Positions 135 to 44,543 of a stretch of DNA of 64,000 nucleotides are shown piece by piece. Position numbers and translations under genes: made by a program. This DNA is from Lachnospiraceae bacterium. GTDB lineage: Bacteria; Bacillota; Clostridia; Lachnospirales; Lachnospiraceae. The stretch is from NCBI GenBank assembly GCA_015057425.1, contig SVEL01000011.1:5518-69517 (forward strand), in the 5' to 3' direction. Within the stretch, counting starts at the first letter, position 1. The number at the start of each line of letters is the position of its first letter. A model generated the notes under the pieces. It ran no database searches. It had not been told where the DNA came from and worked only from the letters and a program-made list of their open reading frames with translations.

Positions 135-163
135 TTGACTTGACAAGGGATATAAAGTAAAAT
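135..163 (+). promoter_or_regulatory. putative sigma-A promoter for the purE operon
   Basis: TTGACT (135-140), 17 nt spacer, TAAAAT (158-163), about 60 nt upstream of the purE ATG. Confidence 0.45.
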
Positions 164-223
164 GAAAGTCGGAGTAGTTTCAAACTCTGAATATAAAATT
201 AGACACAAAAGGAGAATTTACAC

Positions 224-730: not shown

Positions 731-777
731 AAGTTCCGAAGTGAACGATATTTAACGACAGAAAGGATGAAATTATT

Positions 778-1803: not shown

Positions 1804-2423
1804 AAGTTGGGGTTCTTGTATCAGGCGGAGGAACAAACTTACAGGCAATTATAGATAGTATTGGTAATGGTGACATTACCAATACTTCTATTGAAGTAGT
1901 TATAAGTAACAACAAAAACGCATATGCATTAGAACGTGCTAAGAATGCAGGTATTGATGCAGTGTGTATATCACCAAAGGATTATGCAGACAGGGCAGAT
2001 TTTAATAAGGCATTGATAGAATGTCTTGATGAATATGCCCTTGATTTAGTTGTACTTGCAGGCTGTCTTGTAGTTCTTCCGGAAGAATTAATCAGAAAAT
2101 ATAAAAACAGAATTATTAATATTCATCCATCACTTATTCCTGCATTTTGCGGTACAGGTTTTTACGGACTTAAAGTTCATGAGGCAGCTTTGGAACGAGG
2201 AGTGAAGGTAGTAGGTGCAACTGTTCATTTTGTAGATGAAGGAACAGATACGGGACCGATTATTTTCCAGAAACCGGTTATGGTTGAAGACGGAGATACA
2301 GCAAAGGTTCTTCAGCAGAGAGTTATGGAAGAGGCAGAATGGAAGATACTTCCTATGGCTATTGATTATATTGCCAACGGAAGAGTTGAGATTGACGAAA
2401 ACAATAAGGTACATATAAAATAG
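1797..2423 (+). CDS. purN: phosphoribosylglycinamide formyltransferase
   Basis: 208 aa. [12 protein letters not shown] and [10 protein letters not shown] motifs. Its start overlaps the purM stop (ATGCTAA), which suggests translational coupling. Confidence 0.93.
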
Positions 2424-2454
2424 TTACCATTTTAAGAAGAAAGGTTGAAAAGAT

Positions 2455-3726: not shown

Positions 3727-5755
3727 AAAGAAGATTATGTCATTTGTGGGAATTATACTTATAGTTTCCATAGTGGCCGGATATATTAATCCCATAACAA
3801 TTGCATATGGCTATGAGTCTAAAAATGCACGTGTTTCTGTTAATACAGGTTATAAAGTTAATATCAGGCAGGGTGCAGGCACATCCTTTGAAGTACTGAA
3901 AAGCAGTACGGGAAGTTCAGTTCAGTTGTCAAATGGTCACAGTGTGACTATTATCAATGAACAAAATGCCAGTGACGGTATGCTTTGGTACAATATAACT
4001 TTTAAGTATACAGACGGAGAAGTATATACCGGATATATACATAGCAATTATATAATAATAGAAGAAATCGATTATGAAGAAGACGGAGACTTTGAGGAAT
4101 ATTTGGATGAACAGGAATTTCCTGAAAGTTACAAAGAAGAACTGCGTCTGTTACATGCGAAGTATCCTAATTGGGTATTTGTAGCGGATCATCTTGATTA
4201 CGAATGGGATGAAGTTGTTAAAGCAGAAAGTAAGTTGGGCAGAAATCTTGTTTATACCGGTTCTATAAGTTCGTGGAAATCAATTCAGACGGGAGCGTTT
4301 GACTGGGTTAACAATAAATGGGTAGGCTTTGACAGTGACTCATGGGTTGCTGCATCTAAGGAAATTATTGCGTATTATCTTGATCCGAGAAATTTCCTTG
4401 ATGAGAAGTATGTTTTTCAGTTTGAATTACTTTCATATAATGCAGATTATCAGTCTGCAGAAGGACTTGCCAATATCTTAAGCGGAACTTTTATGGATGG
4501 GACGACTATAGATGACGAAGGTACCACATATTCCCAAGCAATAATGGATGCGGCGGCAGTTTCTGGGGTGAGCCCATATCATTTGGCTGCAAGTATTATA
4601 CAGGAACAGGGTTCCGGCGGAGGTTCGGGCAGTATATCAGGCCAGGTGGCAGGTTATGAAGGAATATACAATTATTATAACTGGGGAGCATATGCTGCAA
4701 ATGGTAATTCGGCAGTTAAAAACGGACTTATTTATTCATCAAAGACTGATGAGGCTACTATGAGACCATGGAATACAAGATATAAGTCTATAGTAGGCGG
4801 GGCTATTAAAAAAGGCGCTGAATATATTAATATAGGTCAGGATACTCAGTATTATATAAAGTTTGACTTTGTCGGAACGCCATATACACATCAGTATATG
4901 ACCAATATTCAGGCGGCGGCAAGTGAAGGATATATCGGCTCACAGGCATATACGGAAGAAATGAAAAGTCAGATGCAGATTGTGTTTAAGATACCTGTAT
5001 TTGAAAATATGCCGGAAGAAAATGTACCAATTCCTACAAAGACAGGTAATCCGAACAATTATCTTAAGGAACTTAAAGTAGAAGGTGTGGATATTACACC
5101 AACATTTTTATATTCTACAACAGCATATGACGCGGTTGTGGGATATGATGTTTCGAGTGTAAGTATCAGTGCGACTGCTATAGATTCTAAGGCAAAGATT
5201 ACCGGTACGGGAGTTGTGGAACTTGCAGAAGGGTCAAATGTCATAAAGGTAGTTGTTAAGGCAGAAAATGGTTCGTCGAGAACTTATACAATTACAATTA
5301 TAAGAGAAGAAGCACCGAAGATTCCCGAAGGAGTGTTTGATATTACATCAGAGGAATACTTGATAAGTGATATTATCACCGGTGTAATGCCATCCACAAA
5401 TCAGGATGTTTTTATAAATAAATTTAATGTAACAAACGGAAGCGTTAAAGTTTTAAATGCAAAGGGAGAGGAATTCTCAGGTGCATTGGGAACAGGATGT
5501 AAGTTAGCAACTTATGATTTAAAAGGCGAACTTGTAAAAGAGTATTCCATTATTGTTTATGGTGATGTAAATGGTGACGGAGAGATAGCACTTTTAGATC
5601 TACTTAAGATAAAGAAACATATACTTGGCTCAAGCGAACTTGAAGGTGTATATGCGACAGCAGCCAATGTAAATAAAAAGGAAGATGGTATAACCATTTT
5701 AGATTATTTGAAAGTGAAGAAACATATATTAGGTTCAAGTATTATTGAACAGTAA
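3716..5755 (+). CDS. secreted cell-wall hydrolase candidate: SH3-like, glucosaminidase-like, cadherin-like beta-sandwich and C-terminal dockerin-like repeat pair
   Basis: The ORF track starts at 3695, inside purD. I prefer ATG 3716 (MKLRKKIMSFVGIILIV signal/TM). SPYHLAASIIQEQG...YNYYNWGAY resembles N-acetylglucosaminidase domains. The C-terminus DVNGDGEIALLDLLKIKKHILG ... NKKEDGITILDYLKVKKHILG is a duplicated dockerin-type Ca-binding repeat. Confidence 0.7.
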   Translation: MKLRKKIMSFVGIILIVSIVAGYINPITIAYGYESKNARVSVNTGYKVNIRQGAGTSFEVLKSSTGSSVQLSNGHSVTIINEQNASDGMLWYNITFKYTDGEVYTGYIHSNYIIIEEIDYEEDGDFEEYLDEQEFPESYKEELRLLHAKYPNWVFVADHLDYEWDEVVKAESKLGRNLVYTGSISSWKSIQTGAFDWVNNKWVGFDSDSWVAASKEIIAYYLDPRNFLDEKYVFQFELLSYNADYQSAEGLANILSGTFMDGTTIDDEGTTYSQAIMDAAAVSGVSPYHLAASIIQEQGSGGGSGSISGQVAGYEGIYNYYNWGAYAANGNSAVKNGLIYSSKTDEATMRPWNTRYKSIVGGAIKKGAEYINIGQDTQYYIKFDFVGTPYTHQYMTNIQAAASEGYIGSQAYTEEMKSQMQIVFKIPVFENMPEENVPIPTKTGNPNNYLKELKVEGVDITPTFLYSTTAYDAVVGYDVSSVSISATAIDSKAKITGTGVVELAEGSNVIKVVVKAENGSSRTYTITIIREEAPKIPEGVFDITSEEYLISDIITGVMPSTNQDVFINKFNVTNGSVKVLNAKGEEFSGALGTGCKLATYDLKGELVKEYSIIVYGDVNGDGEIALLDLLKIKKHILGSSELEGVYATAANVNKKEDGITILDYLKVKKHILGSSIIEQ

Positions 5756-5794
5756 GATAGTAACGGTTGTATGAAGGAAGAGAGGATATGAAAT

Positions 5795-7870
5795 ATGACC
5801 TTTAATTATATGAAAAAAACAATATTTACTCTTTGCGTAATTGTTTTTAGCATGTTGATGGTTAAGGCGGTTTATGCTTCTGAGGCAAAGATTTCTGTTA
5901 GTACAGAGTCTGTTGTGGAAGGCGCAAATGTAACAGTGACGGTAACAGTTACGTCAGACGGCAATATTGGAGTTGGCGATTTGTGGTTAACATATGATGC
6001 TTCGGTGATATCTTATTATTCAGGTGCTGATAGTACTGGAGATACAGGAAGCATACGACTTATGATAGAGGGCGACGGAACCGTAAAGGAAGTAAAGCGT
6101 CAAATTGTATTTGTCGGAAAGAAAGCAGGTACAACTGAAATTAAAGTACAGTCGGGATGCGAGATGTACGATTATGATACAGAAGAACTTATGACTGTAT
6201 CATCAGTGGCCGGCAAAGTAACAGTCACAACGCCTGTAGTTGCATCAGATGATAATACGCTTAAAAAACTTGTAGTATATGGTGTAGATAAAAATGGTGA
6301 CAGTCATAAGCTTACACTTAGTCCGAGCTTTTCAAAAAATAAGACAGAGTATAAACTTGAAGTCGGAGCAGATATAACTAAGTTATCTGTTACAGCAACC
6401 ACCAATGATTCAAAAGCAACAGTAAAAACAAGTGGGTTGAAATTATCTGAAGGTGATAATGTAACAACTATAAAAGTTACTGCTGAAAACGGAGATTCCA
6501 AGACATACTATATCTATACGGAAAAAGAAGAAAGTAAGGAAGAAGAAACGACAAAACCACCGAAAGAGGAAGAAACAACAAAACCTGTGGTGGATGATAC
6601 AGAATATATAGAATTGGTTATAGGCGAAGCTATAAAATATATGCCTGTAAAACTTGGAAAAACTGTACTTCCTGAAGGGTTTGAAAAATGTGAATACTCC
6701 TATGGGGACAAGGTAGTAGAAGGCGCAAGAGGTTTATCGAAAGATATATTGATTTTCTATATTCTTGATGAAAATAAAGAAAACGGTAAATTTTATATAT
6801 ATAATGAAACGACAAAATTATTTTATGTAATGATTAATGTTCAGACCGGCGGAAAGATGTATACGTTGGTGACACCGCCTGCTGAACTTGAAATACCGGA
6901 AGGTTTTGCAGAATCTACGGTTACTATTGAAGGTGAAGAAACATTGGCATGGACATATGGTGAGGTATCTGACTTTGTCTATGTATATGCAATGAACTGG
7001 GATGGTCAGAGTGCAATATATTCCTATGATACAGTTGAAAAGACTATGCAGCGTGTATCGGAATATGCCGGTTCCTCAGACCTTGTAAGTAAAGTAGAAA
7101 GTCTTGAAAATGAAATTAAAAATCATCTTTCAACGATTGAGTCACAAAAAAATACAATTGAAGAATTTAATAAATTCAAGAAAAATGTAATCATCGGTGC
7201 AGTTATAATTTTTATCCTTCTTTTGGGAATGCTAATATGGAACCTGATTACTAAGATTGCGGCACGAATGGATAAAAAGGATGAAGAAGCTGCAACTGAA
7301 GAAAATGCAAAGAAAGATGTAAACACAGCAGAACTGGAAACAGCGGTGGAAGTTCCTGTTGCGGCTGTGATTGATAATAAAGAAGAGTCTGTAGAAGAAA
7401 CAGCTGTAGAAGAAACAGCTGCAGAAGAAACAGCTGTAGAAGAAACAGCTGTAGAAGAAACATGTGTAGAGGAAACACATATAGAGGCAACATATGTAGA
7501 AGAAACACATGTAGAAGAGCCACTTGTAGAAAAAACAGCTATAGAAGAAACACCGGAAATTCCTGAGAATGTTGTAATTACACCGGAAAATTCTATAGAA
7601 AAAGAAAAAATGATTCCGGCTACGGAAGCAGAACCGGGCTTTAAATATGATGCCGAAGAAACAGTCGACAGAAACAAGATGGTTCCGGATGATTCGGAAT
7701 TTGTGGAAAAAGAAGAAATGATGGCTGAAGGCATGGAAGAAAATGTCATAATCAGCAGACTTGCGGATGAGGAAATTGAAAGTCTTACATTGGACATTGA
7801 GCCATTGGATATTGATGCCACAGAAGCTATTATAGACAGTTTACTTAATTTTGAGCTGGATGAAGATTAA
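5795..7870 (+). CDS. membrane-anchored protein with N-terminal cohesin-like domain, cadherin-like beta-sandwich, one TM helix and an acidic repeat tail
   Basis: 691 aa with a signal peptide. KISVSTESVVEGANVTVTVTVTSDGNIGVGDLWLTYDASVIS fits the cohesin pattern. Single TM helix VIIGAVIIFILLLGMLIWNLI. The C-terminal ~200 aa are highly acidic. Confidence 0.6.
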   Translation: MTFNYMKKTIFTLCVIVFSMLMVKAVYASEAKISVSTESVVEGANVTVTVTVTSDGNIGVGDLWLTYDASVISYYSGADSTGDTGSIRLMIEGDGTVKEVKRQIVFVGKKAGTTEIKVQSGCEMYDYDTEELMTVSSVAGKVTVTTPVVASDDNTLKKLVVYGVDKNGDSHKLTLSPSFSKNKTEYKLEVGADITKLSVTATTNDSKATVKTSGLKLSEGDNVTTIKVTAENGDSKTYYIYTEKEESKEEETTKPPKEEETTKPVVDDTEYIELVIGEAIKYMPVKLGKTVLPEGFEKCEYSYGDKVVEGARGLSKDILIFYILDENKENGKFYIYNETTKLFYVMINVQTGGKMYTLVTPPAELEIPEGFAESTVTIEGEETLAWTYGEVSDFVYVYAMNWDGQSAIYSYDTVEKTMQRVSEYAGSSDLVSKVESLENEIKNHLSTIESQKNTIEEFNKFKKNVIIGAVIIFILLLGMLIWNLITKIAARMDKKDEEAATEENAKKDVNTAELETAVEVPVAAVIDNKEESVEETAVEETAAEETAVEETAVEETCVEETHIEATYVEETHVEEPLVEKTAIEETPEIPENVVITPENSIEKEKMIPATEAEPGFKYDAEETVDRNKMVPDDSEFVEKEEMMAEGMEENVIISRLADEEIESLTLDIEPLDIDATEAIIDSLLNFELDED
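7391..7550 (+). repeat. in-frame 15 bp tandem repeat (about 10 units, unit gtagaagaaacagct = VEETA), degenerating toward the 3' end
   Basis: Read directly: VEETAVEETAAEETAVEETAVEETCVEETHIEATYVEETHVEE. Confidence 0.85.
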
Positions 7871-34001: not shown

Positions 34002-35591
34002 TTATATAGAATTATTAATGTATCTGAAATAAATTTTGATTTCAGGTTGTGTATTCCTGGAATGATACGTTTTTCGTTTGCCAACGTGAATTGAATGAAT
34101 AAGAGAGGACATCACGTCAGATGTAATGGTTTCTATCGGACCGAGGGCTAAGGAAATCTCAGTAAGCTTTACGATGTTTTCGTAATTATTTTTAGCAGTG
34201 TTATATTCTTTCTCTAAGGCAGACAGATTCTTCCTGGCAGCAGTAATCTTTAAATCGTATGCATTTGTCAAAGTTTTAAAATGTTCTAAAGATATATTTC
34301 CTGTCGCATAATCCTTGTACGAGGAGACTAAAAGCTGGTCTAATTCTTCTATAAGTTCTTTGCAGGAAGAAATTTTCTTTGAAATAGAGTTTTGCTGCTG
34401 TGTCTGCTTTGAGATGGATTTTTGAATGTAACTTTCGATAAAACTCTGCTTATTATCAGAAACGGCAAGGAAAAGTTTGTTTATTTCCCGGAGCAAAGCT
34501 TCTTCTATCACGTGATTTCGCACATAATGAGAAGTACATACAGATGGAACCTTCTTGCTGTTGCTGCAAACATAGTGGCTGGTATCGGGATTGGAATTGT
34601 TACTTCGACCGTGATACATTCTTCCTTTACAATCATCACAATATACGTAGCCTGAAAAAATATCATTCTCTCCCAATCTGTTTGGTCGTCTTTTTAAGGA
34701 ACGTCGTTTTTTGACAAGTTCAAATTCGTCATCAGTGATTATTGGCGGGTGCATATTCGGAACGACAATGTGCGAGTCAGGCGGATTTTTGATAACCTTT
34801 TTACTCTTAAATGAAGGTCTGTAAGTTTTACCGCTTACAACACAACCTGTATATGTTTGATTTTCCAAAATGTTTACAATTGTAGATTTATCCCATATGT
34901 AAGGGTGCTCGGCACGTTTTTTGGAATAATATAAGCCGCTTTTTCTGTAATTATAGGCACCCGGAGAGAGGATTTGATGAGATTCCATATATCTGGAAAT
35001 TTGAGAAGGACCCATTCCCTCTATACATAGTTTAAATATAAGTCTGACATTTGGAGAGGTTTCCGGGTTGATGATATATTGCTTGCTTTCGGAATCCTTC
35101 ATATAACCATAAGGCACCGAGCCGGAAATGTGTTCGCCACGTAACGCCATGGAATGTTGGATAGCACGAATCTTTCGGCTTGTGTCCTTTGGATACCATT
35201 CATTAAATAAATCCCGCATCGGCAATAAATCATCAAGCCCTTTGTTGGTGTCAATGCCATCATTTACAGCGATGTATCTTATATTGTGGGCAATAAAATC
35301 ATCCATAAGAGAGCCGATTACAAGATAATTTCTTCCGAGTCGTGAATGATCTTTTACTATGATAGTGGAAATATCTCCATTTCGTACCTGGGACAACAGT
35401 CGGCTGAATGCCGGTCTTTCAAAATTGGTACCGGACCAACCATCGTCGATGTAGTATTCAATGTTAGTGAAATGGTGTTCGAAAGCATAGTTTCTTAAGA
35501 AAATTTTCTGGTTACTGATACTTCCGCTTTCTGTGTTTTGTTCATCGTCTTTACTTAATCTGCAGTAAAGTGCTGTAATCTTTTGTTTCAT
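34002..35591 (-). CDS. large serine recombinase (resolvase/invertase catalytic domain, recombinase domain, zinc ribbon, coiled coil)
   Basis: 529 aa. N-terminus ALYCRLSKDDE...SISNQ contains the catalytic Ser motif. VKDHSRLGRN motif. Cys cluster YCDDCKGRMY...YVCSN. Confidence 0.9.
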   Translation of the reverse strand: MKQKITALYCRLSKDDEQNTESGSISNQKIFLRNYAFEHHFTNIEYYIDDGWSGTNFERPAFSRLLSQVRNGDISTIIVKDHSRLGRNYLVIGSLMDDFIAHNIRYIAVNDGIDTNKGLDDLLPMRDLFNEWYPKDTSRKIRAIQHSMALRGEHISGSVPYGYMKDSESKQYIINPETSPNVRLIFKLCIEGMGPSQISRYMESHQILSPGAYNYRKSGLYYSKKRAEHPYIWDKSTIVNILENQTYTGCVVSGKTYRPSFKSKKVIKNPPDSHIVVPNMHPPIITDDEFELVKKRRSLKRRPNRLGENDIFSGYVYCDDCKGRMYHGRSNNSNPDTSHYVCSNSKKVPSVCTSHYVRNHVIEEALLREINKLFLAVSDNKQSFIESYIQKSISKQTQQQNSISKKISSCKELIEELDQLLVSSYKDYATGNISLEHFKTLTNAYDLKITAARKNLSALEKEYNTAKNNYENIVKLTEISLALGPIETITSDVMSSLIHSIHVGKRKTYHSRNTQPEIKIYFRYINNSI

Positions 35592-35633
35592 TGAAATAAA
35601 CCTCCGTTTGTAATATATTTGTGTAACAATTAT

Positions 35634-35642
35634 ATTATATCA
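35634..35642 (-). promoter_or_regulatory. extended -10 (TGaTATAAT) of the recombinase gene
   Basis: The minus strand reads agTGaTATAAT, about 45 nt upstream of the recombinase ATG (RBS GGAGG). Confidence 0.5.
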
Positions 35643-35643
35643 C

Positions 35644-35675
35644 TATGGCGGTATACCATTAGGGAACCCGCCATA
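35644..35675 (-). other. dyad-symmetric candidate recombinase binding/crossover site
   Basis: The minus strand reads TATGGCGG-gttccctAAtggtata-CCGCCATA: perfect 8 bp arms and a 16 nt spacer. The centre falls on the AA of the CCTAA core shared with the four cassette genes. Confidence 0.5.
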
Positions 35676-35805
35676 AGGGAGATAAAGAAACTAGGGATAA
35701 AAGAAGAGAAGTGATTCAGATAAATATATACCCAAAACGCTTCTCTAAAAGATGGAACTTCCTATATTAGAATTAATGATTATAAAATTGAATTAAATAG
35801 ATAGA

Positions 35806-36663
35806 TTATAGTTTGCAAGTACCACAATCTTTAGATTTCAGATCATTAAATTTCATTACAAATTCATCAACTGTTTTCGACTCTATCGCAAAGTCAAACC
35901 ACTTATCAAGAATATCCGAATTATTTTCATCTTTGATGGAACAAGTAACAATCTCAGGCACATCACCAAGTCGACAGAGTATACGTAATATATATTCAGT
36001 TTTGCCTTCATGTTTAGCTTTTTTTGATGTGCGATTAAGCAATTCTTCAAACTTCATATATCCCGCCTCCAATTCACGACTCTTTTTGAGTTTTGTTACC
36101 TCTTCGTGCAGCTTATGTATCAAAGGATTTTTGACGGTTGATACATATTCGTCACTTGTATTTTCGAAGTATTCAAAAAATTCCCGCAGCTCATCAGGTA
36201 AACTCTCAACATCTTTACCTTTAGTGTTAAAGAAAATCCTTTTAGCGCCATCACCAAGCTTCGCACCATCTTCTGAGCAGGATGCTTCATATGTATATCT
36301 GCAAAGTCCACGTCCAAACGGATCAAATGTACAGATAAATATGATAAAGCTATCTCCGAGTTTGTCATAACTGTCACCCGGTTTCAAAGAAGATATATCA
36401 ACTTCAGCCTGGTAATAACGACTTCGCTTTGGCAAATCATCTTCAGAGAAATTCTGCGCTTCAATATCATAATTAACATCAAATGAATCTGTTGCATGTA
36501 CATCAAGACGGATACATTTAACATCTGAGCTTATAAGTATCGGATGTTCTGACTTAACATTTAGATTATCCACGTGCTTTCCAAGCAACAATTCCAACAT
36601 AATTCTACAGTTATCGGGATTTTCAAATACAGCTGCAAAAAGAAAAGAACTGTTCAAATTCAA
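35806..36663 (-). CDS. Rpn-family recombination-promoting nuclease / PD-(D/E)XK putative transposase
   Basis: 285 aa. RLDVHATD...NYDIEAQN...RSRYY matches the D/ExQ/R-Y pattern of the PDDEXK_2 (YhgA/Rpn) family. The start codon is uncertain: TTG at 36663, or ATT 9 nt after GGAGG. Confidence 0.7.
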   Translation of the reverse strand: MNLNSSFLFAAVFENPDNCRIMLELLLGKHVDNLNVKSEHPILISSDVKCIRLDVHATDSFDVNYDIEAQNFSEDDLPKRSRYYQAEVDISSLKPGDSYDKLGDSFIIFICTFDPFGRGLCRYTYEASCSEDGAKLGDGAKRIFFNTKGKDVESLPDELREFFEYFENTSDEYVSTVKNPLIHKLHEEVTKLKKSRELEAGYMKFEELLNRTSKKAKHEGKTEYILRILCRLGDVPEIVTCSIKDENNSDILDKWFDFAIESKTVDEFVMKFNDLKSKDCGTCKL

Positions 36664-36756: not shown

Positions 36757-36785
36757 TATATTTTGTATAAATAATTAGTGCCGAA

Positions 36786-36868
36786 TAAAAAACCGAGAGA
36801 CATTGTCTCTCGGTGGGAAAAGGAAAAACAAGCAAAAAAGAAGTCATACCCAAAAGTATGACTTCTTT
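36786..36868 (-). terminator. twin terminator hairpins downstream of cassette gene A
   Basis: On the minus strand: agaagtcatac...gtatgacttct plus a T run, then ccgagagacaatgtctctcgg plus a T run. Confidence 0.7.
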
Positions 36869-36900
36869 ATTAGTGAGAGTTAATTTATCAAGTAAGCTGA

Positions 36901-37827
36901 TTATTCAGCAACGGTTCTCTTTCTCATAACAACAACTACTGCCATAGCAGCTACTGCTAAGATAGCTACTGGAAGAACTGCTGTCATATCACCTGTTTCT
37001 GTTGCATCTTCTGTTTCTGTCTCTGTTGCAGTAGGAGCTGCATATAAAGCTGCTACATCTGCCGCACTTAATTCGCGTTCATAAATGCACACTTCGTCCA
37101 TTAAACCAGAGAAGTTAGCATTCCACCAGTCGCCACTTCCAATAAAACCAACATCTGTCCAAGATGCTGCATCATCACTAAACATGTTTAAATATGTTGA
37201 GCCATTGTCTGTAGAATAAGCAAACCAACCATCGTCAGTATAATTAGCTTCATCCCAGTATGTTGAAACTTCAACACCATCTACATAAACTGTTGCTTTG
37301 CCTGTTGCTGAAACAGTATATGTTAACATTGTCCACTTTGATGTATCCTGACCAACCTTACCTGTTCTCCAATGGTCACCTACTGCTGATTCCCAACTAA
37401 ATGCGCTTGACATAGCTGCACGTGATGCTGCGAATGCATCTGTTGTGTTATTTGAACAGAACTGGAAATACTGACAGCAACCGTCAAAGAACAATGCTGT
37501 TCCTGTTGCGTCATTCTTTACCCAATAACTAACTGTAAAAGCTGTTGTTGTAGGAAGCTTATCCAAGGCAATAGCTACTGCTGCGTTTGCAAGTGTACTT
37601 GTGCCAGCATTTGCTGAAAAGTCAAATGCTTTACCTTTGATACCACCGTCAACATAAGCCGCTGTTCCTTTGTTAAGTGTTGCATCTGAGTCAGCGGCAT
37701 CATTTGCCAAACTATCTTCGAAAGAGTATTTTGCTATTAACCCCGTTTCGATATCAGCCGCAAATGCAGGCGCTGCTAATGCAAGTGTCATTACTGTAGC
37801 TACTGCTACTGCAAAAAATTTCTTCAT
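36901..37827 (-). CDS. secreted LamG/concanavalin-like surface protein, cassette paralog A
   Basis: The start MKKFFAVAVATVMTLALAAPAFA follows GGAGG. LamG-type motif DEVCIYERELSAADVAALY. C-terminus ATETGDMTAVLPVAILAVAAMAVVVVMRKRTVAE. Confidence 0.85.
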   Translation of the reverse strand: MKKFFAVAVATVMTLALAAPAFAADIETGLIAKYSFEDSLANDAADSDATLNKGTAAYVDGGIKGKAFDFSANAGTSTLANAAVAIALDKLPTTTAFTVSYWVKNDATGTALFFDGCCQYFQFCSNNTTDAFAASRAAMSSAFSWESAVGDHWRTGKVGQDTSKWTMLTYTVSATGKATVYVDGVEVSTYWDEANYTDDGWFAYSTDNGSTYLNMFSDDAASWTDVGFIGSGDWWNANFSGLMDEVCIYERELSAADVAALYAAPTATETETEDATETGDMTAVLPVAILAVAAMAVVVVMRKRTVAE

Positions 37828-37887
37828 TTTTCTTTCTACCTCCAATATTAATGTGGTATTCCCCAAAGATAAAAATATATATTTAGG
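37779..37887 (-). repeat. conserved 5' module (CCTAA core, leader, RBS, signal-peptide codons), copy A
   Basis: Near-identical to 38817-38946, 39166-39295 and 41383-41512. Confidence 0.85.
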
Positions 37888-37922
37888 GAACCCGCCATAA
37901 GGGAGATGAAGAAAGAGAAATG

Positions 37923-37956
37923 AAAAAGAAGTCATACCAAAAAGTATGACTTCTTT
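37923..37956 (-). terminator. terminator hairpin downstream of cassette gene B
   Basis: The agaagtcatac / gtatgacttct stem plus a T run on the minus strand. Confidence 0.65.
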
Positions 37957-37989
37957 CATTAGTGAGAATTAATTTATTAAGTATGCTGA

Positions 37990-38886
37990 TTATTCAGCGA
38001 CTGTTCTCTTTCTCATAGCAACAACTACTGCCATAGCAGCTACTGCTAAGATAACTACAGGAAGAACTGCTGTCATATCACCTGTTTCTGTTGCTTCTTC
38101 TGTTTCTGTTTCCTGAATGAATTCGCCTGCTGCTGCTGATGCAACTCCAGCTGCATCTAATTCATCAAACCAAATTGCTACATCATCAAACAAAAGATGT
38201 GAGTCTCTATCTGTCCAGCAGTGATTGTGATATCCACCGATAGTAGCTATAGTATACAAATCTGAGAATGCATCACCAGTATCTGTACGATCTAAACTAT
38301 TAAGAACTTCGCCATCAAGATAAACAACTGACTTTGTAGCAGTTACAGTATAAACCAAATGATGCCACTCGTTGTCATCAAGATATCCGTCATAATTGTT
38401 TGTGTTATATGCGTTGTTATCAAAGAAACCGCCGTTATTAACATGCATTGTTCCTCTAACACCAAAAACTGTCCACTGCCAGTCAGCATCAGGATTCTGC
38501 GCTGTAAATATTGGTGCCCAGCCGTCGCCGATTTCTGTCCAATTAGTAACATCATTATTTGACGCAGGTGATTTTACCCACATACTAAGTGAAAACTCTT
38601 CTGCTGCTGCAAGATCTTCCAAAAACTTTTCAGGAAGTTTTAAATAATCTGTACGCTGTGCTGAAGCTGAACCAGTTACGTTGTCAAATACCTTTCCGCG
38701 TGCATCATCTGCAATTGCACCTGATCCAACAATTGTAAGTGCTGTATCTGTTTCTCCTGCAAGACCTGCATTGTTTAAATTTCCTTCGAAATCATAATAA
38801 TAATTAGGTGCATCCATTGCGAAAGCTGAAACTGACATAGCAAGTGTTGTCACTGTAGCTAAAGCTACTGCAAAAATTTTTTTCAT
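37990..38886 (-). CDS. secreted LamG-like surface protein, cassette paralog B
   Basis: Start MKKIFAVALATVTTLAMSVSAFA. Motif FDDVAIWFDELDAAGVA. Same ETGD-TM-RKRTVAE tail. Confidence 0.85.
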   Translation of the reverse strand: MKKIFAVALATVTTLAMSVSAFAMDAPNYYYDFEGNLNNAGLAGETDTALTIVGSGAIADDARGKVFDNVTGSASAQRTDYLKLPEKFLEDLAAAEEFSLSMWVKSPASNNDVTNWTEIGDGWAPIFTAQNPDADWQWTVFGVRGTMHVNNGGFFDNNAYNTNNYDGYLDDNEWHHLVYTVTATKSVVYLDGEVLNSLDRTDTGDAFSDLYTIATIGGYHNHCWTDRDSHLLFDDVAIWFDELDAAGVASAAAGEFIQETETEEATETGDMTAVLPVVILAVAAMAVVVAMRKRTVAE

Positions 38887-38946
38887 TTTTCTTTCTACCT
38901 CCAATATTAATGTGGTATTCCCCAAAGATAAAAATATATATTTAGG
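38817..38946 (-). repeat. conserved 5' module, copy B (left arm of the inverted repeat flanking the B-C intergenic segment)
   Basis: The first 83 nt from the core are identical to copy C in inverted orientation. A few mismatches follow, out to ~130 nt. Confidence 0.85.
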
Positions 38947-39110
38947 GAACCTGCCATAAGGGAGATGAAGAAAGAAGAGAATGATATGTTGTGAAAACTT
39001 GATAAGTTTCGATAAAGAGTTGACACAGCGTTTAGTATAAATGTGGAGTTTTACTAAACAAAACGTGGTAAAATTCGGATTAAAAAAATAAAAAAAGAAT
39101 TAACATTATG

Positions 39111-39139
39111 TTGACAATAACTTAAATAAATGATATTAT
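39111..39139 (+). promoter_or_regulatory. near-consensus sigma-A promoter facing cassette gene C
   Basis: TTGACA (39111-39116), 17 nt spacer ending in TGa, TATTAT (39134-39139). Confidence 0.65.
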
Positions 39140-39165
39140 TTTTTTATCTTAAAAAAAGAGGTATG

Positions 39166-39295
39166 CCTAAATATATATTTTTATCTTTGGGGAATACCAC
39201 ATTAATATTGGAGGTAGAAAGAAAAATGAAAAAAATTTTTGCAGTAGCTATGGCTACAGTAATGACACTTGCTATGTCAGTTTCAGCTTTCGCTG
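39166..39295 (+). repeat. conserved 5' module, copy C (right arm of the inverted repeat)
   Basis: Homology to the other copies begins exactly at CCTAA (39166-39170). The upstream sequence is unique and carries the promoter. Confidence 0.85.
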
Positions 39296-40137
39296 CAACA
39301 CCAGTTTACTTCAATGATTTTGAAGATGGCGCAGGCGATGCAACAATCGTAGGTAGTGGTGCAATTGAAGATGATGCCAATGAAAAATATGGAAAGGTTT
39401 TCCATAACGCAGTAGGCGATGCAACAAATGTTAGAACAAATTACTTGCTTTTACCGGAAGATGTATTATCACATAGCGTAGATTCAAAAGAATTAACTAT
39501 TCAGTTTTGGGTCAACTTAGGTGCAACAGGTACAAATGATATGTATTCTCCGTTATTTGGTGCTTATGCTGCAGAACCACCTGCAACAGGAAATTCATGG
39601 CCGATGTTGGTTCTTCAGTCAAGATTACTTGCTCAGGTTAACTGTGCCGGATGGAGTGATCTTACAGCAGATCAGAATCTTGAAGGCGGAAATACAGAAG
39701 ATGTTACATGGTTAGATGACAAAGAATGGCACTTATACACAGTTACATTTGATGAAGAAATCGTAACAATTTATGTTGATGGTGTTGTTAAGCAGAAATG
39801 GGATGCTTCAACAGATTATGGCACAAACACTGACACAACAGTAGCTGGTTTGTATTCAAACGGTGCAGACCTTAAGTATATCTGCCTTGGTGGTAACCAG
39901 GCTTGGAACTGGGGCGATCCAGATGCTGACTATTTATTTGATGATGTTGCAATCTACAACGTAGCTTTATCAGCAGATGATATTGCTGATGTTATGGAAG
40001 CAAAGACAGCAGAAGCTTCAGACACAGAAGATGCAACAGAAACAGGTGATATGACAGCAGTTCTTCCAGTAACTATCTTAGCAGTAGCTGCTATGGCAGT
40101 AGTTGTTGTTATGAGAAAGAGAACAGTTGCTGAATAA
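39226..40137 (+). CDS. secreted LamG-like surface protein, cassette paralog C
   Basis: Start MKKIFAVAMATVMTLAMSVSAFA. Motif FDDVAIYNVALSADDIADV. Same ETGD-TM-RKRTVAE tail. Confidence 0.85.
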   Translation: MKKIFAVAMATVMTLAMSVSAFAATPVYFNDFEDGAGDATIVGSGAIEDDANEKYGKVFHNAVGDATNVRTNYLLLPEDVLSHSVDSKELTIQFWVNLGATGTNDMYSPLFGAYAAEPPATGNSWPMLVLQSRLLAQVNCAGWSDLTADQNLEGGNTEDVTWLDDKEWHLYTVTFDEEIVTIYVDGVVKQKWDASTDYGTNTDTTVAGLYSNGADLKYICLGGNQAWNWGDPDADYLFDDVAIYNVALSADDIADVMEAKTAEASDTEDATETGDMTAVLPVTILAVAAMAVVVVMRKRTVAE

Positions 40138-40169
40138 TCAGCTTACTTAATAAATTAACTCTCACTAAT

Positions 40170-40251
40170 AAAGAAGTCATACTTTTGGGTATGACTTCTT
40201 TTTTGCTTGTTTTTCCTTTTCCCGCCGAGAGACAATGTCTCTCGGTTTTTT
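40170..40251 (+). terminator. twin terminator hairpins downstream of cassette gene C
   Basis: The same two hairpins as at 36786-36868, in mirror orientation. Confidence 0.7.
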
Positions 40252-40278
40252 ATACTCATTGTTTTTATGCAAAATGTA

Positions 40279-40306
40279 TTGACATATAAACAATATGTGG
40301 TATAAT
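40279..40306 (+). promoter_or_regulatory. promoter of the right Rpn gene
   Basis: TTGACA (40279-40284), 16 nt spacer, TGgTATAAT (-10 at 40301-40306). Confidence 0.6.
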
Positions 40307-40341
40307 GAATGAAAGGAAACTTCCTGTTTTGTAGGAGGTGT

Positions 40342-41238
40342 TTGTTAATTAATAAGGATTTTAAAGATTTAAATTTAAACAGTTCGTTTCTTTTTGCGGC
40401 AGTATTTGAAAATCCAGACAATTGCAGAATTATGCTGGAACTGTTACTTGGGAAACACATCGACAATCTAAGTGTTAAATCTGAGCATCCGCTACTTATA
40501 AGTACAGATGTCAAATGTATTCGGCTCGATGTACATGCCACAGATTCCTACGATGTTAATTATGATATCGAAGCACAGAATTTCTATGAGGATGACCTGG
40601 CAAAGAGAAGCCGTTATTATCAAGCAGAATTAGATGTGGCATCTTTAAAACCTGGTGACAGCTATGATAAACTTGGTGATTCTTTTATCATATTTATCTG
40701 TACATTTGATCCGTTCGGTCGAGGGCTTTGCAGATATACATATGAAGCCTCTTGTTCAGAGGATGGCGAAAAGCTTGGCGATGGCGCAAAAAGGATTTTC
40801 TTTAATACCAAAGGAAAAGATGTGGAGAGTTTATCTGCTGAACTGAGGGAGTTTTTTGGATATTTCGAAAACACAAATGACGCGTATGTATCAACTGTCA
40901 ACAATCCTTTGATACACAAGTTACATAAAGAAGTTACCAAACTTAAAAAGAGTCGTGAATTGGAGGCCGGATATATGAAGTTTGAAGAGTTGCTCAATCG
41001 AACATCGGAAAAAGCTAAGCGTGAAGGCAAAATTGAAGGTAAGATCGAAGATATATTACGTATACTCTGTCGCCTTGGTGATATCCCTGAAGATGTCACC
41101 TGTTCTATCAAGCACGAAAACAATTCAGAGATTCTCGATAAGTGGTTTGACATTGCAATAGAATCAAAAAACGTTGATGAATTTATAAAAAAGTTTAAAA
41201 GTCTGAACTCTAAGGATTATGGTGCTTACAAACTATAA
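40342..41238 (+). CDS. Rpn-family recombination-promoting nuclease / PD-(D/E)XK putative transposase (second copy)
   Basis: Roughly 85-90 percent identical by eye to the 35806-36663 product, with one 4 aa indel. The ORF-track ATG at 40309 lies 2 nt after the -10 and so upstream of the likely TSS. The real start is probably TTG 40342 or ATT 40348. Confidence 0.7.
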   Translation: MLINKDFKDLNLNSSFLFAAVFENPDNCRIMLELLLGKHIDNLSVKSEHPLLISTDVKCIRLDVHATDSYDVNYDIEAQNFYEDDLAKRSRYYQAELDVASLKPGDSYDKLGDSFIIFICTFDPFGRGLCRYTYEASCSEDGEKLGDGAKRIFFNTKGKDVESLSAELREFFGYFENTNDAYVSTVNNPLIHKLHKEVTKLKKSRELEAGYMKFEELLNRTSEKAKREGKIEGKIEDILRILCRLGDIPEDVTCSIKHENNSEILDKWFDIAIESKNVDEFIKKFKSLNSKDYGAYKL

Positions 41239-41382
41239 TCTGTCTATTTGATTAAAATTTATTATCATTAAAGATTTACACAGGAAGTTCCATCTTTTTA
41301 GAGAAGTGTTTTGGGTATATATTTATCTAAATCACTTCTCTTATTTTATCCCTATTTTCTTCATATCCCTTATGGCAGGTTC

Positions 41383-41512
41383 TCTAAATATATATTTTTA
41401 TCTTTGGGGAATACCGCATTAATATTGGAGGTAGAAAGAAAAATGAAGAAAATTTTTGCAGTAGCAGTAGCTACAGTAATGACACTTGCTATGTCAGTTT
41501 CAGCTTTCGCTG
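41383..41512 (+). repeat. conserved 5' module, copy D
   Basis: Same leader, RBS and signal peptide. The core has one change (tctaa). Confidence 0.8.
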
Positions 41513-42237
41513 CAACAGAAGACAGGGTTGTTTATCAGAAAAATACTTATGCACTTGATGGTGATGCAACAACAGTAGAAAGTATGGATAATCCATTATT
41601 AAATCTTGATGCAAGCAAGATTGTAGTTGAATTCACAGTAACATCTCAGCAGCAGTTTGCAGCTTGGCCTATGGTAGCTTGTTTCTACAATTTAGATGAT
41701 AACGATGCTCCAAGAGGTGCAGCAGCAGTCAATTACTGGCCAAAGATTGAATTAAACAAATTTGATGATCCAAACCAGTGGTGTTCAGCAGGTTCAGGTG
41801 AGGCAAACAACGGTGGTACAATTTATGCGGATACACACTGTGATGGTCAGCCACATACATACAAATATGAAATCACAGACACAGCTGTTGTTATGACAGT
41901 TGATGGTACAGTCATCACTACAAAGTATGGTTATGGTGATGGGGCTTCAACAGATGCTGAATGTGCTGCTATGATTTTGGATTATATGAATACAGCTGCG
42001 AAATTTTCATTAGGAGCTGGAAGCAATATTTTTACTTGGGGTGAATTAACAGGTACACTTGAAAACTTCAAGATTACAGCTACAGTAGAAGCAACTGAAC
42101 CAACTCCAACAGAAGGAACGGAAACAGAAGATGCAACAGAAACAGGAGATATGACAGCAGTTCTTCCAGTAGCTATCTTAGCAGTAGCTGCTATGGCAGT
42201 AGTAGTTGTTATGAGAAAGAGAACAGTTGCTGAATAA
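41443..42237 (+). CDS. secreted surface protein, cassette paralog D (divergent beta-rich core)
   Basis: Start MKKIFAVAVATVMTLAMSVSAFA. Same ETGD-TM-RKRTVAE tail. The core lacks the LamG end motif. Confidence 0.8.
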   Translation: MKKIFAVAVATVMTLAMSVSAFAATEDRVVYQKNTYALDGDATTVESMDNPLLNLDASKIVVEFTVTSQQQFAAWPMVACFYNLDDNDAPRGAAAVNYWPKIELNKFDDPNQWCSAGSGEANNGGTIYADTHCDGQPHTYKYEITDTAVVMTVDGTVITTKYGYGDGASTDAECAAMILDYMNTAAKFSLGAGSNIFTWGELTGTLENFKITATVEATEPTPTEGTETEDATETGDMTAVLPVAILAVAAMAVVVVMRKRTVAE

Positions 42238-42449: not shown

Positions 42450-43295
42450 ATGAAGAAAAAGTTTTTTGCGGTAGTCGCTACGACTGTGATAACAGCTATG
42501 ATGTCGCTTACAGCATTTGCATCATCGTTTCAGCTTACAGAAAGTAGCACATACAAGTATGCCAATCCGTTAAAAGGTACTAATCCGGAAGAAGTAACTA
42601 TTGAATACACTATCACTGCAGCTGATAATGCAGCGGCAAATGGATGGGATGGTATATTATCATTCTATAACTCGAGTACATTGGGACGTGTTTCTATTCA
42701 AAGTCATCCGTATGTATGTTGGAATTCAGCTAATGCAGCAGCAGGATGGATTGACCATAAGGCATCAGCATTACAGATAAAGAAGGGCGTTGAACAGTCA
42801 TATAAGATTGTTATTAATAAGGATGGAATTCAGATGTTTTTAAATGGTGAAGCAATAACAAGTGCTGATACAGGTACATCGGCAGGCGATGCAACACCTA
42901 TAGCGGTTACATATCAGAATATTCTTGATGAAATTAACGGATGTGATTATTTCTTTGTAGGCGTAGGAAAAGCACAGTATTGCTATTGGAATACGGAGGT
43001 TTGTACGTTAACAGGCGTTAAAGTCAATGGTAAGGAATTTGACCCGGATAAGATTTTGCAGGAAGAGACAACGACGTTGGGAGTTCCTGAAAAGAACACT
43101 ATGGATTATGGTGTTCCTGTAGATGATAGCGGTTCAGTGAATATAGTGCCGGTTATTGTGGTATCGGTAGTTGCAGTTCTTGCAGTGGTTGTGGTTGTAG
43201 TTGTTCTTGTGATTGTTATATCTAAAGGAAAGAAAAAGAATAATGACGAAGAAATAAATAAAGAATCGCAGGAAGAGACGAATTCGGAAGAATAA
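42450..43295 (+). CDS. secreted, TM-anchored surface protein (lectin-like beta-rich ectodomain, acidic cytoplasmic tail)
   Basis: MKKKFFAVVATTVITAMMSLTAFA follows GGGAGGAG. C-terminal TM helix VPVIVVSVVAVLAVVVVVVVLVIVI, then KGKKK and an acidic tail. Confidence 0.75.
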   Translation: MKKKFFAVVATTVITAMMSLTAFASSFQLTESSTYKYANPLKGTNPEEVTIEYTITAADNAAANGWDGILSFYNSSTLGRVSIQSHPYVCWNSANAAAGWIDHKASALQIKKGVEQSYKIVINKDGIQMFLNGEAITSADTGTSAGDATPIAVTYQNILDEINGCDYFFVGVGKAQYCYWNTEVCTLTGVKVNGKEFDPDKILQEETTTLGVPEKNTMDYGVPVDDSGSVNIVPVIVVSVVAVLAVVVVVVVLVIVISKGKKKNNDEEINKESQEETNSEE

Positions 43296-43445: not shown

Positions 43446-44543
43446 ATGAAGAAAAGAATTTTTGCAGCAGTTATTACTGCTATGATGACAGTATCTATGG
43501 CTGTATCAGCATTTGCAGCAGATATTGAATCAGATCTTATTGGTAAGTTTACATTTGATGAAAACATCACAAATGCAGTTACCGGAGAAGACGCTAAGAT
43601 TATTGCTCAGAAGGGATTAGGCCCTGATGCAGCAGCAGTAGAGTACACATTCCCATTCGTAGATGGTGTAGATGGTAAGGCTCTTCATTTAGGTACAGAC
43701 ACAACAGGTGCAGCTAATACAAACGCACTTAACTTAAACCTTAAGGTTAAAGATGACCAGAACTATACATTCTCAGTATGGGTAAAGGCTTTCGAAGAAA
43801 GAGTTAACTTTGCTTGTCCTGTTGTTTGGATGGGTAAAGCAGTTCAGTCTCCAGAAAACTGGGTAGGTATCTGGCCAGGACTTGCTGGTGACTATGCAAA
43901 TGGTCCATGTTTCGGTGCTAACGGTATTATCGACAGCTCAGAAGTTGTTACAAGATTAGGTGCTGTACCTCTTACAGACGAAGGTCTTGGTATTAAGAAA
44001 CCTGTTAACGCTGAAGTTAAGACAACATTTGAATGGACAAATATTACTGCAGTAGTTAAAGATGGTATTGCTTGGTTATACTATGATGGAAAGTTAGTAG
44101 CTTCAACAGAAGGTAAGAACGGTACTAATGGTGATCAGCAGTTAACACCACATGTAAATGAAGATGATACAGTAAGCATTTACCTTGGTGCAAACTACTG
44201 GGATGCTCCGTTCGTAGGATATGTTGATGACTTATACATCTATGACAGAGCTTTAACAACAGAAGATGTAGTTGCATTAGTAACAGAAACAAACAAAGCC
44301 GGTGTTGCATTAGGCGACTATTCAGAATATGTTACAACAACAACAATCGACTACACAAAGAAACCAAGTATCAACAAGAATCCTGATTGGGTACAGGAAG
44401 AAGAAGATTCTATGTTAGTACCAATTATTATTGCAGCAGCAGTAGTAGTTGTATTAGTAGTAGTTATCGTATTGGTATTAGTAGTAAGCAAGTCAAAGAA
44501 GAAAGACGATGCTGAAGAAGATGCAGAAGATACAAACGCTTAA
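43446..44543 (+). CDS. secreted LamG-domain protein with C-terminal TM anchor and acidic tail
   Basis: 365 aa. Signal peptide ending SAFA, LamG motif VDDLYIYDRALTTEDVVAL, TM helix, then KSKKKDDAEEDAEDTNA. Confidence 0.85.
   Translation: MKKRIFAAVITAMMTVSMAVSAFAADIESDLIGKFTFDENITNAVTGEDAKIIAQKGLGPDAAAVEYTFPFVDGVDGKALHLGTDTTGAANTNALNLNLKVKDDQNYTFSVWVKAFEERVNFACPVVWMGKAVQSPENWVGIWPGLAGDYANGPCFGANGIIDSSEVVTRLGAVPLTDEGLGIKKPVNAEVKTTFEWTNITAVVKDGIAWLYYDGKLVASTEGKNGTNGDQQLTPHVNEDDTVSIYLGANYWDAPFVGYVDDLYIYDRALTTEDVVALVTETNKAGVALGDYSEYVTTTTIDYTKKPSINKNPDWVQEEEDSMLVPIIIAAAVVVVLVVVIVLVLVVSKSKKKDDAEEDAEDTNA

Follow-up and report, generated by a model that had tools for sequence, protein, structure and literature searches.

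A probable multi-site promoter shufflon linked to a large serine recombinase in a Lachnospiraceae surface-protein locus

We analyzed a stretch of Lachnospiraceae DNA of 64,000 nucleotides (the window) and found a locus that is probably a promoter shufflon with multiple sites, run by a large serine recombinase (LSR) and serving antigenic variation of surface proteins. Five sites with a common core precede four surface-protein paralogs (A, B, C, and D) and the adjacent LSR gene. A single promoter arm is found at one of these sites, and natural rearrangements of the locus have their junctions at the core.

One strong predicted promoter for four surface-protein paralogs

In the paralog proteins, a LamG-type domain is combined with a signal peptide and a C-terminal (TM) anchor. 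The paralogs and the genes lying among them are as follows.

36901..37827, minus strand: paralog A, LamG-type surface protein (PF13385), behind a U arm and presumed silent
37990..38886, minus strand: paralog B, LamG-type surface protein (PF13385), starting at 38886 and presumed silent
39226..40137, plus strand: paralog C, LamG-type surface protein, the copy now behind the promoter
41443..42237, plus strand: paralog D, with the 5' and 3' modules of A-C and a different body, presumed silent
36785..37032, minus strand: 3' module of A, comprising the C-terminal anchor and terminators
35806..36663, minus strand: Rpn-family PD-(D/E)XK gene, copy 1 (PF12784, TIGR01784), inside the invertible region
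40309..41238, plus strand: Rpn-family PD-(D/E)XK gene, copy 2, with a promoter at 40279-40306

The second PD-(D/E)XK gene is an inverted duplicate of the first (84% identity), whose own promoter (11/12) is located at 36756-36729. The 3' module of A pairs with that of C (40006-40253) in a 248-nt inverted repeat (96%). The 5' modules are about 128-162 nt long and 90-96% identical. A repeat search placed those of B and C in a 128-nt inverted repeat, 96% complementary, with arms at 38819-38946 and 39166-39293 and a spacer of 219 nt. The first-pass annotation had described this segment as flanked by inverted 5' modules, and the repeat search bore it out, with a longest perfect match of 84 nt rather than 83.

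38947..39165, plus strand: promoter-carrying segment, with the U_B arm at its left, the promoter at 39111-39139, and the P arm at its right
38946-38975: U_B arm, at the left end of the segment and facing B
right end of 38947..39165: P arm, AAAAAAAGAGGTATGC, facing C
38819..38946, minus strand: left inverted-repeat arm, the B leader and signal-peptide module up to the core (CTAA 38945->38942)
39166..39293, plus strand: right inverted-repeat arm, the core (CTAA 39167-39170) followed by the C leader and signal peptide

Promoters and terminators were called as consensus matches. The scan identified the promoter TTGACA-17-TATTAT, with TG upstream, at 39111-39139 on the plus strand (11/12), facing C. 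It is the only match of at least 11/12 in the 339-bp B-C intergenic region, where dinucleotide shuffles of the region gave an expectation of 0.013, and the earlier claim of one near-consensus promoter toward C was therefore correct. A weak minus-strand promoter, TTGTTT-16-TATACT, had also been proposed; the motif is present, scoring 3/6 and 5/6, but it falls under the scanner threshold. Within 9.3 kb, promoters of at least 11/12 precede C, the two PD-(D/E)XK genes, E, F, and the next gene, and none precedes A, B, or D. The consensus scan found no match of at least 9/12 upstream of A or B. The sole such match near D scores 9/12 and lies about 280 nt upstream of the ATG, inside the preceding gene, in line with the earlier observation that A, B, and D have no comparable -35/-10. 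In all, the scans assigned a single strong promoter to the four paralogs and placed hairpins upstream of U arms. Judged by these motifs, the U-linked paralogs look promoter-less and would be silent.

Five sites share a core and exchange left arms

Alignment identified five sites with a CTAA core, of which R, A, and B are on the minus strand and C and D on the plus strand. This gives at least two site copies in inverted orientation, as in shufflon-type loci. The left arm is U at four sites and the promoter arm P at one (C). Besides its copy on the B side of the segment, element U (TTCTTCATCTCCCTTATGGCrGGTTC) precedes A, D, and the recombinase gene, just as the first-pass annotation had placed it. 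The homology breakpoints meet at CCTAA: homology ends left of the core at site C and right of it at siteR. The U and P left half-sites have GGnnTnCC in common at -10 to -3.

35625..35697, minus strand: siteR, the recombinase's own site, with a U arm, core CTAA 35662->35659, and R' arm
37883..37914, minus strand: site A, the U_A arm and core CTAA 37886->37883, preceded by the B terminator (37924-37957)
41356..41387, plus strand: site D, the U_D arm and core CTAA 41384-41387
41300..41341, plus strand: hairpin X2 with a U-rich tail, a terminator-like insulator upstream of U_D (z -3.6)
35705..35746, minus strand: hairpin X1, terminator-like, upstream of U_R (z -1.1, weaker than X2)

SiteR is a near-palindrome, formed by TATGGCGG (35675-35668) and CCGCCATA (35651-35644), 16 nt apart. 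Its dyad centre is the AA of CTAA (35660-35659), which we infer to be the crossover dinucleotide; at site C, the crossover is predicted at AA 39169-39170. An extended -10, TGATATAAT, is found in siteR at 35642-35634. We also considered whether D and the recombinase gene are co-transcribed with the upstream PD-(D/E)XK genes. Such read-through is less likely because hairpins with U-rich tails intervene.

Natural rearrangements at the sites

Rearranged forms were observed in contigs of the same strain. A P-core-A junction was found in ENA ERZ27248306 (L019) and JGI 3300022753 (L020), and a U_D-core-A junction in JGI 3300028242 (L027). Every piece of these recombinant contigs is 100% identical to the window; the contigs are few, short, and from metagenome assemblies. 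The window's own P->C state was found in at least 10 samples. The crossover in L027 falls between two markers: a T specific to D, immediately to the left of CTAA, and, 33 nt to the right, a SNP of the A type. The crossover intervals in the window's strain are 65 nt and 32 nt. The first-pass annotation had predicted a promoter->B form. This form was not found in public assemblies, in which P->A and U_D->A were found instead, and exact look-ups of the 319-aa and 330-aa promoter-B products returned no match. In all, 11 predicted junction proteins were looked up exactly (P-B, P-D, P-A of 340 aa, U_A-C/D/B, and U_D-A/B/C), each without a match; those with a TTG start are uninformative, since the genuine D ORF (308 aa, TTG) was not found either.

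Further alternative arrangements with junctions at the sites come from orthologous loci. Two MAGs (L032 and L033, with contigs of 26 and 81 kb) carry an identical orthologous LSR (P0011, 50% identity to that of the window) in a syntenic locus. The two loci are 100% identical except for a cyclic permutation of the left arms P, U_seg, and U_R relative to the three right arms, which belong to a 246-aa gene, a LamG gene, and the recombinase. They differ by two inversions with all junctions at CCTAA, and one junction is at the recombinase's own site, whose left arm is exchanged. The first-pass annotation had named a CCTAA core, and these junctions agree with it as the exchange point. The exchanging sites have 5-27 nt in common, too little for homologous recombination, and the leaders differ between paralogs.

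The layout with one promoter arm is conserved. In a motif scan of nine loci with eight recombinase variants, several of them on contigs that end beside the recombinase, each locus had exactly one P-L site, one U-R' site, and 0-3 U-L sites. Although non-coding, both arms have conserved sequences, AAAAAnnnGTATGCCTAA in the P arm and CTTAyGGC....CCT in the U arm. The P arm is kept in L028, L029, L031, L032/L033, and L038, and siteR in L028-L033, L035, and L038. In L038, every gene site is in one orientation, which leaves siteR as the sole possible inversion partner.

Homologous (RecA-type) recombination between the 5' modules, similar to that of sap and with the neighbouring recombinase unrelated, is an unlikely source of these rearrangements. 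The length and identity of the 5' modules would suit it, and the 65-nt and 32-nt crossover intervals, which lie inside shared sequence, would also fit homologous exchange inside these modules. Secondary exchanges at the A 3' module in L019 and L027 have differing crossover points and look homologous; they include A-3'->PD2 junctions, which are impossible through exchanges at the cores. However, a sap-type system has long homology and no dedicated recombinase, whereas the sites in L032 and L033 share from CCTAA up to about 27 nt and yet all junctions are exactly at the core. The homology boundaries are also sharp at the identical 5 bases in three different contexts, and the LSR, the palindromic site, and the arm motifs have stayed together across relatives of 45-72% identity.

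We consider it quite improbable that the 219-bp segment alone flips between B and C, the other sites being inactive duplication relics. No other inverted pair of sites is as close together as B and C or has flanks as alike. L032 and L033 can be interconverted by two routes, one of which is a small-segment flip, and this makes a B/C-type flip plausible in itself. However, the recombinant junctions recovered concern sites A and D, siteR swaps arms between L032 and L033, L038 leaves only siteR as a partner, and no P->B fusion is present among the contigs on record. The first-pass annotation had proposed such a two-state inverton. Its movable promoter between recombination sites holds, but its two-state scope is too narrow for a locus with five sites, in which three core-sharing sites beyond a simple promoter inverton's two also exchange.

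It is very improbable that the array is static, with the repeats as duplication leftovers and the variant contigs as assembly chimeras. Most assemblies do have one arrangement and many contigs break inside modules; L027 carries gene A twice and may in part be a chimeric walk through the assembly graph. Against this, P->A was seen in two independent assemblies made with different pipelines, and the perfect stretch shared there is 65 nt, which typical read lengths and final assembly k-mers presumably exceed. The contigs of L032 and L033 are long and differ by a clean 2.4-kb inversion together with the transposition of a 170-bp segment, and the one-P architecture is conserved.

A large serine recombinase as the presumed invertase

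The gene adjoining the array encodes a protein with the domains of a large serine recombinase.

34002..35591, minus strand: LSR gene, 529 aa, presumed invertase (Pfam Resolvase, Recombinase, and Zn_ribbon_recom)

The domains are PF00239 (7-152), PF07508 (176-298), and PF13408 (311-371). A YCRLS motif, read from the sequence at residues 9-13 in the N-terminal part, includes the active-site serine, and the C-terminal region after the Zn ribbon is expected to be a coiled-coil. With this length and these domains, the protein is not a small serine invertase of the Hin/Gin type (about 190 aa with a C-terminal HTH). It falls in a distinct clade (45-72% identity), and generic DUF4368 LSRs are at 39% identity or less. 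A match to the Mpi family is weak, far below the cutoff, and covers the catalytic domain only. The linkage of LSR and array is kept in L028-L033, L035, and L038, as for a dedicated recombinase. This adjacency and conservation suggest that the LSR catalyses the inversions. A protein-based scan of a metagenome contig collection returned only an unrelated LSR at 35%. In this collection, the centre of the promoter segment had 0 hits even though it is present in known JGI contigs, whose samples are evidently missing there. Genome contigs, when scanned, yielded three relatives (51-52% identity), most of them located on contigs that end beside the recombinase.

That the LSR is instead a mobile-element integrase or transposase, with the CTAA sites as att sites or target remnants, is highly improbable: its closest generic relatives are DUF4368-type LSRs, which are typical of clostridial mobile elements, and its NCBIfam matches, each weak and well under the cutoff, are CcrB/XisF-type excision recombinases, but the locus is chromosomal with identical flanking neighbours in three species-level relatives, no phage, ICE, or conjugation genes were found adjacent to it, and a site precedes every paralog with one promoter arm conserved.

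Proposed mechanism of switching

In the proposed shufflon, the LSR would pair two oppositely oriented sites, cut at the central AA, and invert the intervening DNA. Each inversion would swap left arms, place the promoter before another paralog, and so change the surface coat. The U arms would be promoter-less and insulated by terminators, the single P arm being at C at present. Because left-arm swaps give products of unchanged site kinds, the locus could stay switchable without a directionality factor. The palindromic siteR would act as a pivot, and it would be the only inverted partner if all surface genes face one way, as in L038. SiteR probably overlaps the recombinase's own -10 promoter, so that the recombinase might regulate its own expression through this site.

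A more specific and tentative proposal is that a reversible, RDF-independent LSR serves as an arm-swapping invertase for multiple sites, with siteR as both pivot and operator, in a self-resetting random coat selector. Here, the left half-site would be canonical (U or P) and the right arm would stay with its gene, and each exchange would therefore recreate sites of the substrate type. If the promoter were parked on siteR (P-R', never observed), a burst of recombinase could follow and force a new shuffle. We rejected a strict hub model (attP x attB / attL x attR), in which all switches go via the recombinase site, because the pairing of U arm and gene could then never change, yet U_D-A exists.

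Comparison with known systems

In vpma, a single promoter travels among recombination sites that lie in 5' untranslated regions. Similar to vpma of Mycoplasma agalactiae (Xer1), vsp of M. bovis, and vsa of M. pulmonis, the locus has an array of surface paralogs with an adjacent site-specific recombinase, and, as in vpma, site-specific inversions are proposed to switch the expressed paralog. In contrast to these systems, which use tyrosine (Xer/lambda-Int type) recombinases, the recombinase here is an LSR and one site belongs to its own gene. The systems also differ in host, here a Lachnospiraceae-like gut Firmicute, and in their products, which are lipoproteins there and TM-anchored LamG proteins here. 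Sap of Campylobacter fetus is RecA-dependent, without a dedicated recombinase, and nested inversions bring other copies to the promoter. Both sap and the locus have a unique promoter on an invertible segment between opposed homologs with conserved 5' regions. What sets the locus apart from sap is a conserved core of 5 bp, short motifs in the arms, an LSR next to the array, and exchange between near-non-homologous sites. In M. agalactiae, Xer1-mediated vpma inversions are accompanied by Xer1-independent chimeras, duplications, and deletions (PMC5634654), and the latter resemble the 3'-module exchanges described above.

Hin, Gin, Cin, and Min share with the LSR the chemistry of serine recombinases, and the crossover predicted for the locus is likewise 2 bp at the dyad centre, a non-palindromic AA. 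These enzymes lack its 529-aa LSR architecture and, unlike the proposed shufflon, swap C-terminal coding segments or flip one promoter. Min of p15B carries out multiple inversions between several sites (PMC6109161), and one account has Hin/Gin-type invertases depend on an enhancer and Fis (PMC3798978).

The integrases of phiC31, Bxb1, A118, and SPbeta, as well as clostridial TnpX/TndX, have the same order of Resolvase, Recombinase, and Zn ribbon, and short sites centred on a dinucleotide. Accounts of serine integrases describe attP x attB recombination as unidirectional, with an RDF needed for reversal (PMC5737554, PMC11722253). This canonical unidirectionality counts against the shufflon. The locus differs from phage-type integrase systems in having at least 3-5 sites in one chromosome, in regenerating the same site types, and in its non-mobile context and proposed outcome in gene regulation. 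A unidirectional integrase does not fit a left-arm exchange that regenerates site classes in a syntenic chromosomal locus free of MGE genes.

PhaseFinder-type invertons, such as those of Bacteroides fragilis (Mpi) and C. difficile (RecV), resemble the locus in having a short promoter segment between inverted repeats and surface-structure genes nearby. Each of them switches on or off through two sites, and the enzymes, tyrosine or small serine invertases, often act in trans on many loci, whereas here multiple sites share one promoter among several genes in cis.

Implications

To our knowledge, every described inversion system that moves a promoter relies on a tyrosine recombinase, a small serine invertase, or RecA. 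The prevailing view of LSRs is that they integrate in one direction and require a directionality factor. We found no description of an inverton or shufflon run by an LSR in the literature searched, which is not proof of novelty; the survey of programmed inversions by Milman et al. mentions no serine recombinases, LamG, or Lachnospiraceae. If the shufflon is real, a chromosomal LSR that reversibly shuffles one promoter would be a new natural role for this enzyme class and a ready test case for relaxed LSR directionality. For synthetic biology, it suggests a self-contained DNA switch with multiple states. Loci of this kind tend to be collapsed or broken by short-read assemblies. The locus suggests that uncultured Lachnospiraceae in herbivore guts vary their antigens or adhesins; in these bacteria, surface variation has received little study.

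The promoter segment between paralogs B and C

A 339-bp spacer separates the divergent surface-protein paralogs B and C. The first-pass annotation had described a segment of about 219 bp here, lying between inverted copies of the 5' module, and a repeat search recovered it: the arms (38819-38946 and 39166-39293) are 128 nt long and 96% complementary, with 219 nt between them, and the longest perfect match between the B and C 5' modules is 84 nt. The near-consensus promoter reported to face C was also found. It is a sigma-70-like TTGACA-17-TATTAT with an upstream TG (39111-39139) and is the only match of at least 11/12 in the spacer, where chance would give 0.013 such matches (dinucleotide shuffles). 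The weak minus-strand promoter flagged by the annotation matched at 3/6 and 5/6, under the scanner's threshold. As the annotation had noted, further copies of the element at the segment's B end, TTCTTCATCTCCCTTATGGCrGGTTC, lie ahead of A, D and the recombinase gene.

Genes and recombination-site cores (position of the C of CTAA)
34002-35591, minus: 529-aa large serine recombinase (LSR; Resolvase, Recombinase and Zn_ribbon_recom domains)
35662, minus: core of site R
35806-36663, minus: Rpn-family PD-(D/E)XK copy 1, inside the invertible region
36901-37827, minus: paralog A
37886, minus: core of site A
37990-38886, minus: gene B, LamG-type paralog
38945, minus: core of site B
39167, plus: core of site C
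39226-40137, plus: gene C, LamG-type paralog
40309-41238, plus: Rpn-family PD-(D/E)XK copy 2, inverted copy with 84% identity to copy 1
41384, plus: core of site D
41443-42237, plus: paralog D
42450-43295, plus: paralog-like surface protein E, own 11/12 promoter at 42363
43446-44543, plus: paralog-like surface protein F, own 11/12 promoter at 43349

Five sites with exchangeable arms

We aligned the regions upstream of the recombinase gene (R) and A-D and found a two-arm layout around CTAA at all five. Four of them (R, A, B and D) have the promoter-less element U as left arm; the fifth, C, has a promoter arm, P. On the right, A-D have a common leader, L, and R has the recombinase's own leader, R', so that homology ends left of CCTAA at C and right of it at R. 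Site R is near-palindromic, with TATGGCGG and CCGCCATA separated by 16 nt, and its dyad centre is the AA of CTAA, where the 2-bp staggered cut of a serine recombinase is expected. In our reading, U, P and R' appear to have an inner GGnnTnCC in common, -10 to -3 from the dyad centre.

A hairpin with a U-rich tail lies ahead of U_A (B's terminator, 37924-37957, minus), of U_D (41300-41341, plus) and of U_R (35705-35746, minus). No strong hairpin was found before the fourth U arm, U_B, at the back of the promoter segment. The three hairpins would shield the recombinase and the putatively silent copies from transcription arriving from upstream. The leader of the recombinase gene contains an extended -10, TGATATAAT (35634-35642, minus), 21-29 nt past the core start, and the recombinase's putative binding site thus overlaps its own promoter region. 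TATAAT is similarly spaced in the recombinase leaders of contigs L028-L033 and L038. The overlap suggests that the recombinase may be autoregulated through site R.

Rearrangements at the core

The exact recombinase protein occurs in numerous JGI and ENA samples, on 21 contigs in total. Every contig spanning the B-C spacer into C-specific sequence (at least 10 samples) has the window's orientation. Three contigs deviate from the window's arrangement, while all their pieces match it at 100% identity. L019 (ENA ERZ27248306) runs from the flank of PD-(D/E)XK copy 2 through the 3' module, body and leader of A to the core, followed by the promoter segment, U_B and B; the promoter is therefore fused to A at the core. 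The same junction of P, core and A-type leader is found in L020 (JGI 3300022753). In L027 (JGI 3300028242), PD-(D/E)XK copy 2, the hairpin before U_D and U_D itself are joined to A, and the crossover lies between the D-specific base adjoining CTAA on its left and an A-type base 33 nt to its right. These junctions are the expected products of exchanges between sites A and C and between sites A and D. An attP x attB scheme of the strict integrase kind cannot yield the U_D-A junction and was therefore rejected.

Many contigs of this strain (L002, L005, L010, L012, L018, L025 and L026) end 31-76 nt past a core, within the 5' module, one of them exactly ahead of the D-specific SNP. Such ends are the pattern expected of branching in the assembly graph where alternative junctions coexist in a sample.

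An orthologous locus in two states

The recombinase clade is small: its nearest member has 72% identity, others have 45-52%, and generic DUF4368 LSRs have at most 39%. One ortholog, P0011 (50% identity to the window's LSR), is identical in two MAGs, L032 and L033, at whose locus the neighbouring genes match those in the window (ABC-3, ABC_tran, DegV, a purL-like gene, Lit and a helicase). The two contigs are identical over positions 1-7346 and 99.96% identical (5 mismatches) from 9848 on; reverse-complementing L033 7342-9700 gives L032 7516-9874. The promoter arm of L032 lies on a 246-aa gene, the U arm of the segment on a LamG gene and U_R on the recombinase. In L033 the 246-aa gene has U_R, the LamG gene has the promoter arm and the recombinase has the segment's U arm. 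Between L032 and L033 the three left arms change places cyclically, which equals two inversions, and the recombinase's own site is shown to take part. Ordinary homologous recombination is ruled out here, since partner sites have only 5-27 nt in common, the two genes have different leaders and all junctions are at CCTAA. Two routes are possible: one opens with inversion of the 170-bp promoter segment between the divergent genes, and the other goes via an intermediate that has the recombinase behind the promoter.

Proposed mechanism and its conservation

We propose that the LSR, the putative catalyst, would pair two inverted sites, cut at AA and swap the left arms, shifting the promoter arm from paralog to paralog. 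Copies linked to U would be kept off, because U is promoter-less and a terminator lies ahead of it. Right arms would remain with their genes, so that the products would again be U-L and P-L sites and the system would stay reversible. We consider a five-site, LSR-associated shufflon working in this way to be likely. The two-state B/C inverton of the first-pass annotation is partly supported: there is an invertible promoter, which would be one element of the larger system; the B/C flip is the same kind of event as one possible L032/L033 route, but the predicted products with P moved to B were not on record in our look-ups.

We scanned nine loci for the arm motifs (the window, L028-L033, L035 and L038), several of whose contigs break off beside the recombinase. 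Each locus has exactly one P-L site, one U-R' site and 0-3 U-L sites, and a P-R' site was found in none of the nine. Both left arms are kept across loci though non-coding: P as AAAAAnnnGTATGCCTAA with TTGACA-17-TATAAT before it, U as CTTAyGGC....CCT. In L038 the three paralogs are in tandem, leaving site R as their only inverted partner, and this accounts for the presence of a site at the recombinase gene, where it serves as the pivot. Among named relatives, uncultured Roseburia and Lachnospiraceae MAGs are closest, and one of these comes from water-deer rectum.

Gene content and 3' modules

A-D have in common a 5' module (leader and signal peptide) and a 3' module (TGD motif, TM helix, RKRTVAE tail and terminators); A, B and C contain Laminin_G_3 domains. 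E and F have diverged signal-peptide modules and no U/core site; they look constitutively expressed and lie outside the putative shufflon. Across species, the C-termini of A-D (for example 40038-40137) and of the L029 and L038 paralogs have a conserved signal made up of (E/D)TGD, a hydrophobic helix and [KR][KR]RTV[AT]E. This looks like a sorting signal, and no Pfam or NCBIfam model matched it.

In L019 (1-500) and L027 (3200-3400), the 3' module of A is followed by the flank usually found after C, and the crossover intervals of the two contigs are not the same (23 nt and 74 nt of identity). Core inversions cannot yield these joins. The 3' modules (36785-37032 and 40006-40253) form a 248-nt inverted repeat of 96% identity, and gene A occurs twice in L027. 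The joins could reflect gene conversion or homologous inversion between 3' modules, or assembly error. N runs cover the C-terminal anchor/terminator region of one paralog in L029 (~3620-3720) and L038 (~6850-6980), which suggests scaffolding gaps at repeated 3' modules in these MAG contigs.

Both PD-(D/E)XK genes of the window lie within the invertible region, and they might be connected with homology-type exchanges in the 3' modules. Each window copy has an 11-12/12 promoter, and L032/L033 have a single such 'recombination-promoting nuclease' gene (L032 8748-9746). These genes are absent from L029, L031 and L038 and are therefore not essential to the design.

Relation to known systems

Functionally, the locus resembles the sap system of C. 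fetus. A similar likeness was found to the Mycoplasma vpma, vsp and vsa loci (PMC5634654). The enzyme belongs to the serine recombinases by chemistry but differs in size and domains from Hin/Gin-type invertases, and thus is not of that type. Phage integrases are described as unidirectional and RDF-dependent (PMC5737554, PMC11722253), whereas the window's LSR does not appear to behave so. No description of an LSR-run inverton or shufflon was found in the literature searched, which is suggestive, not conclusive.
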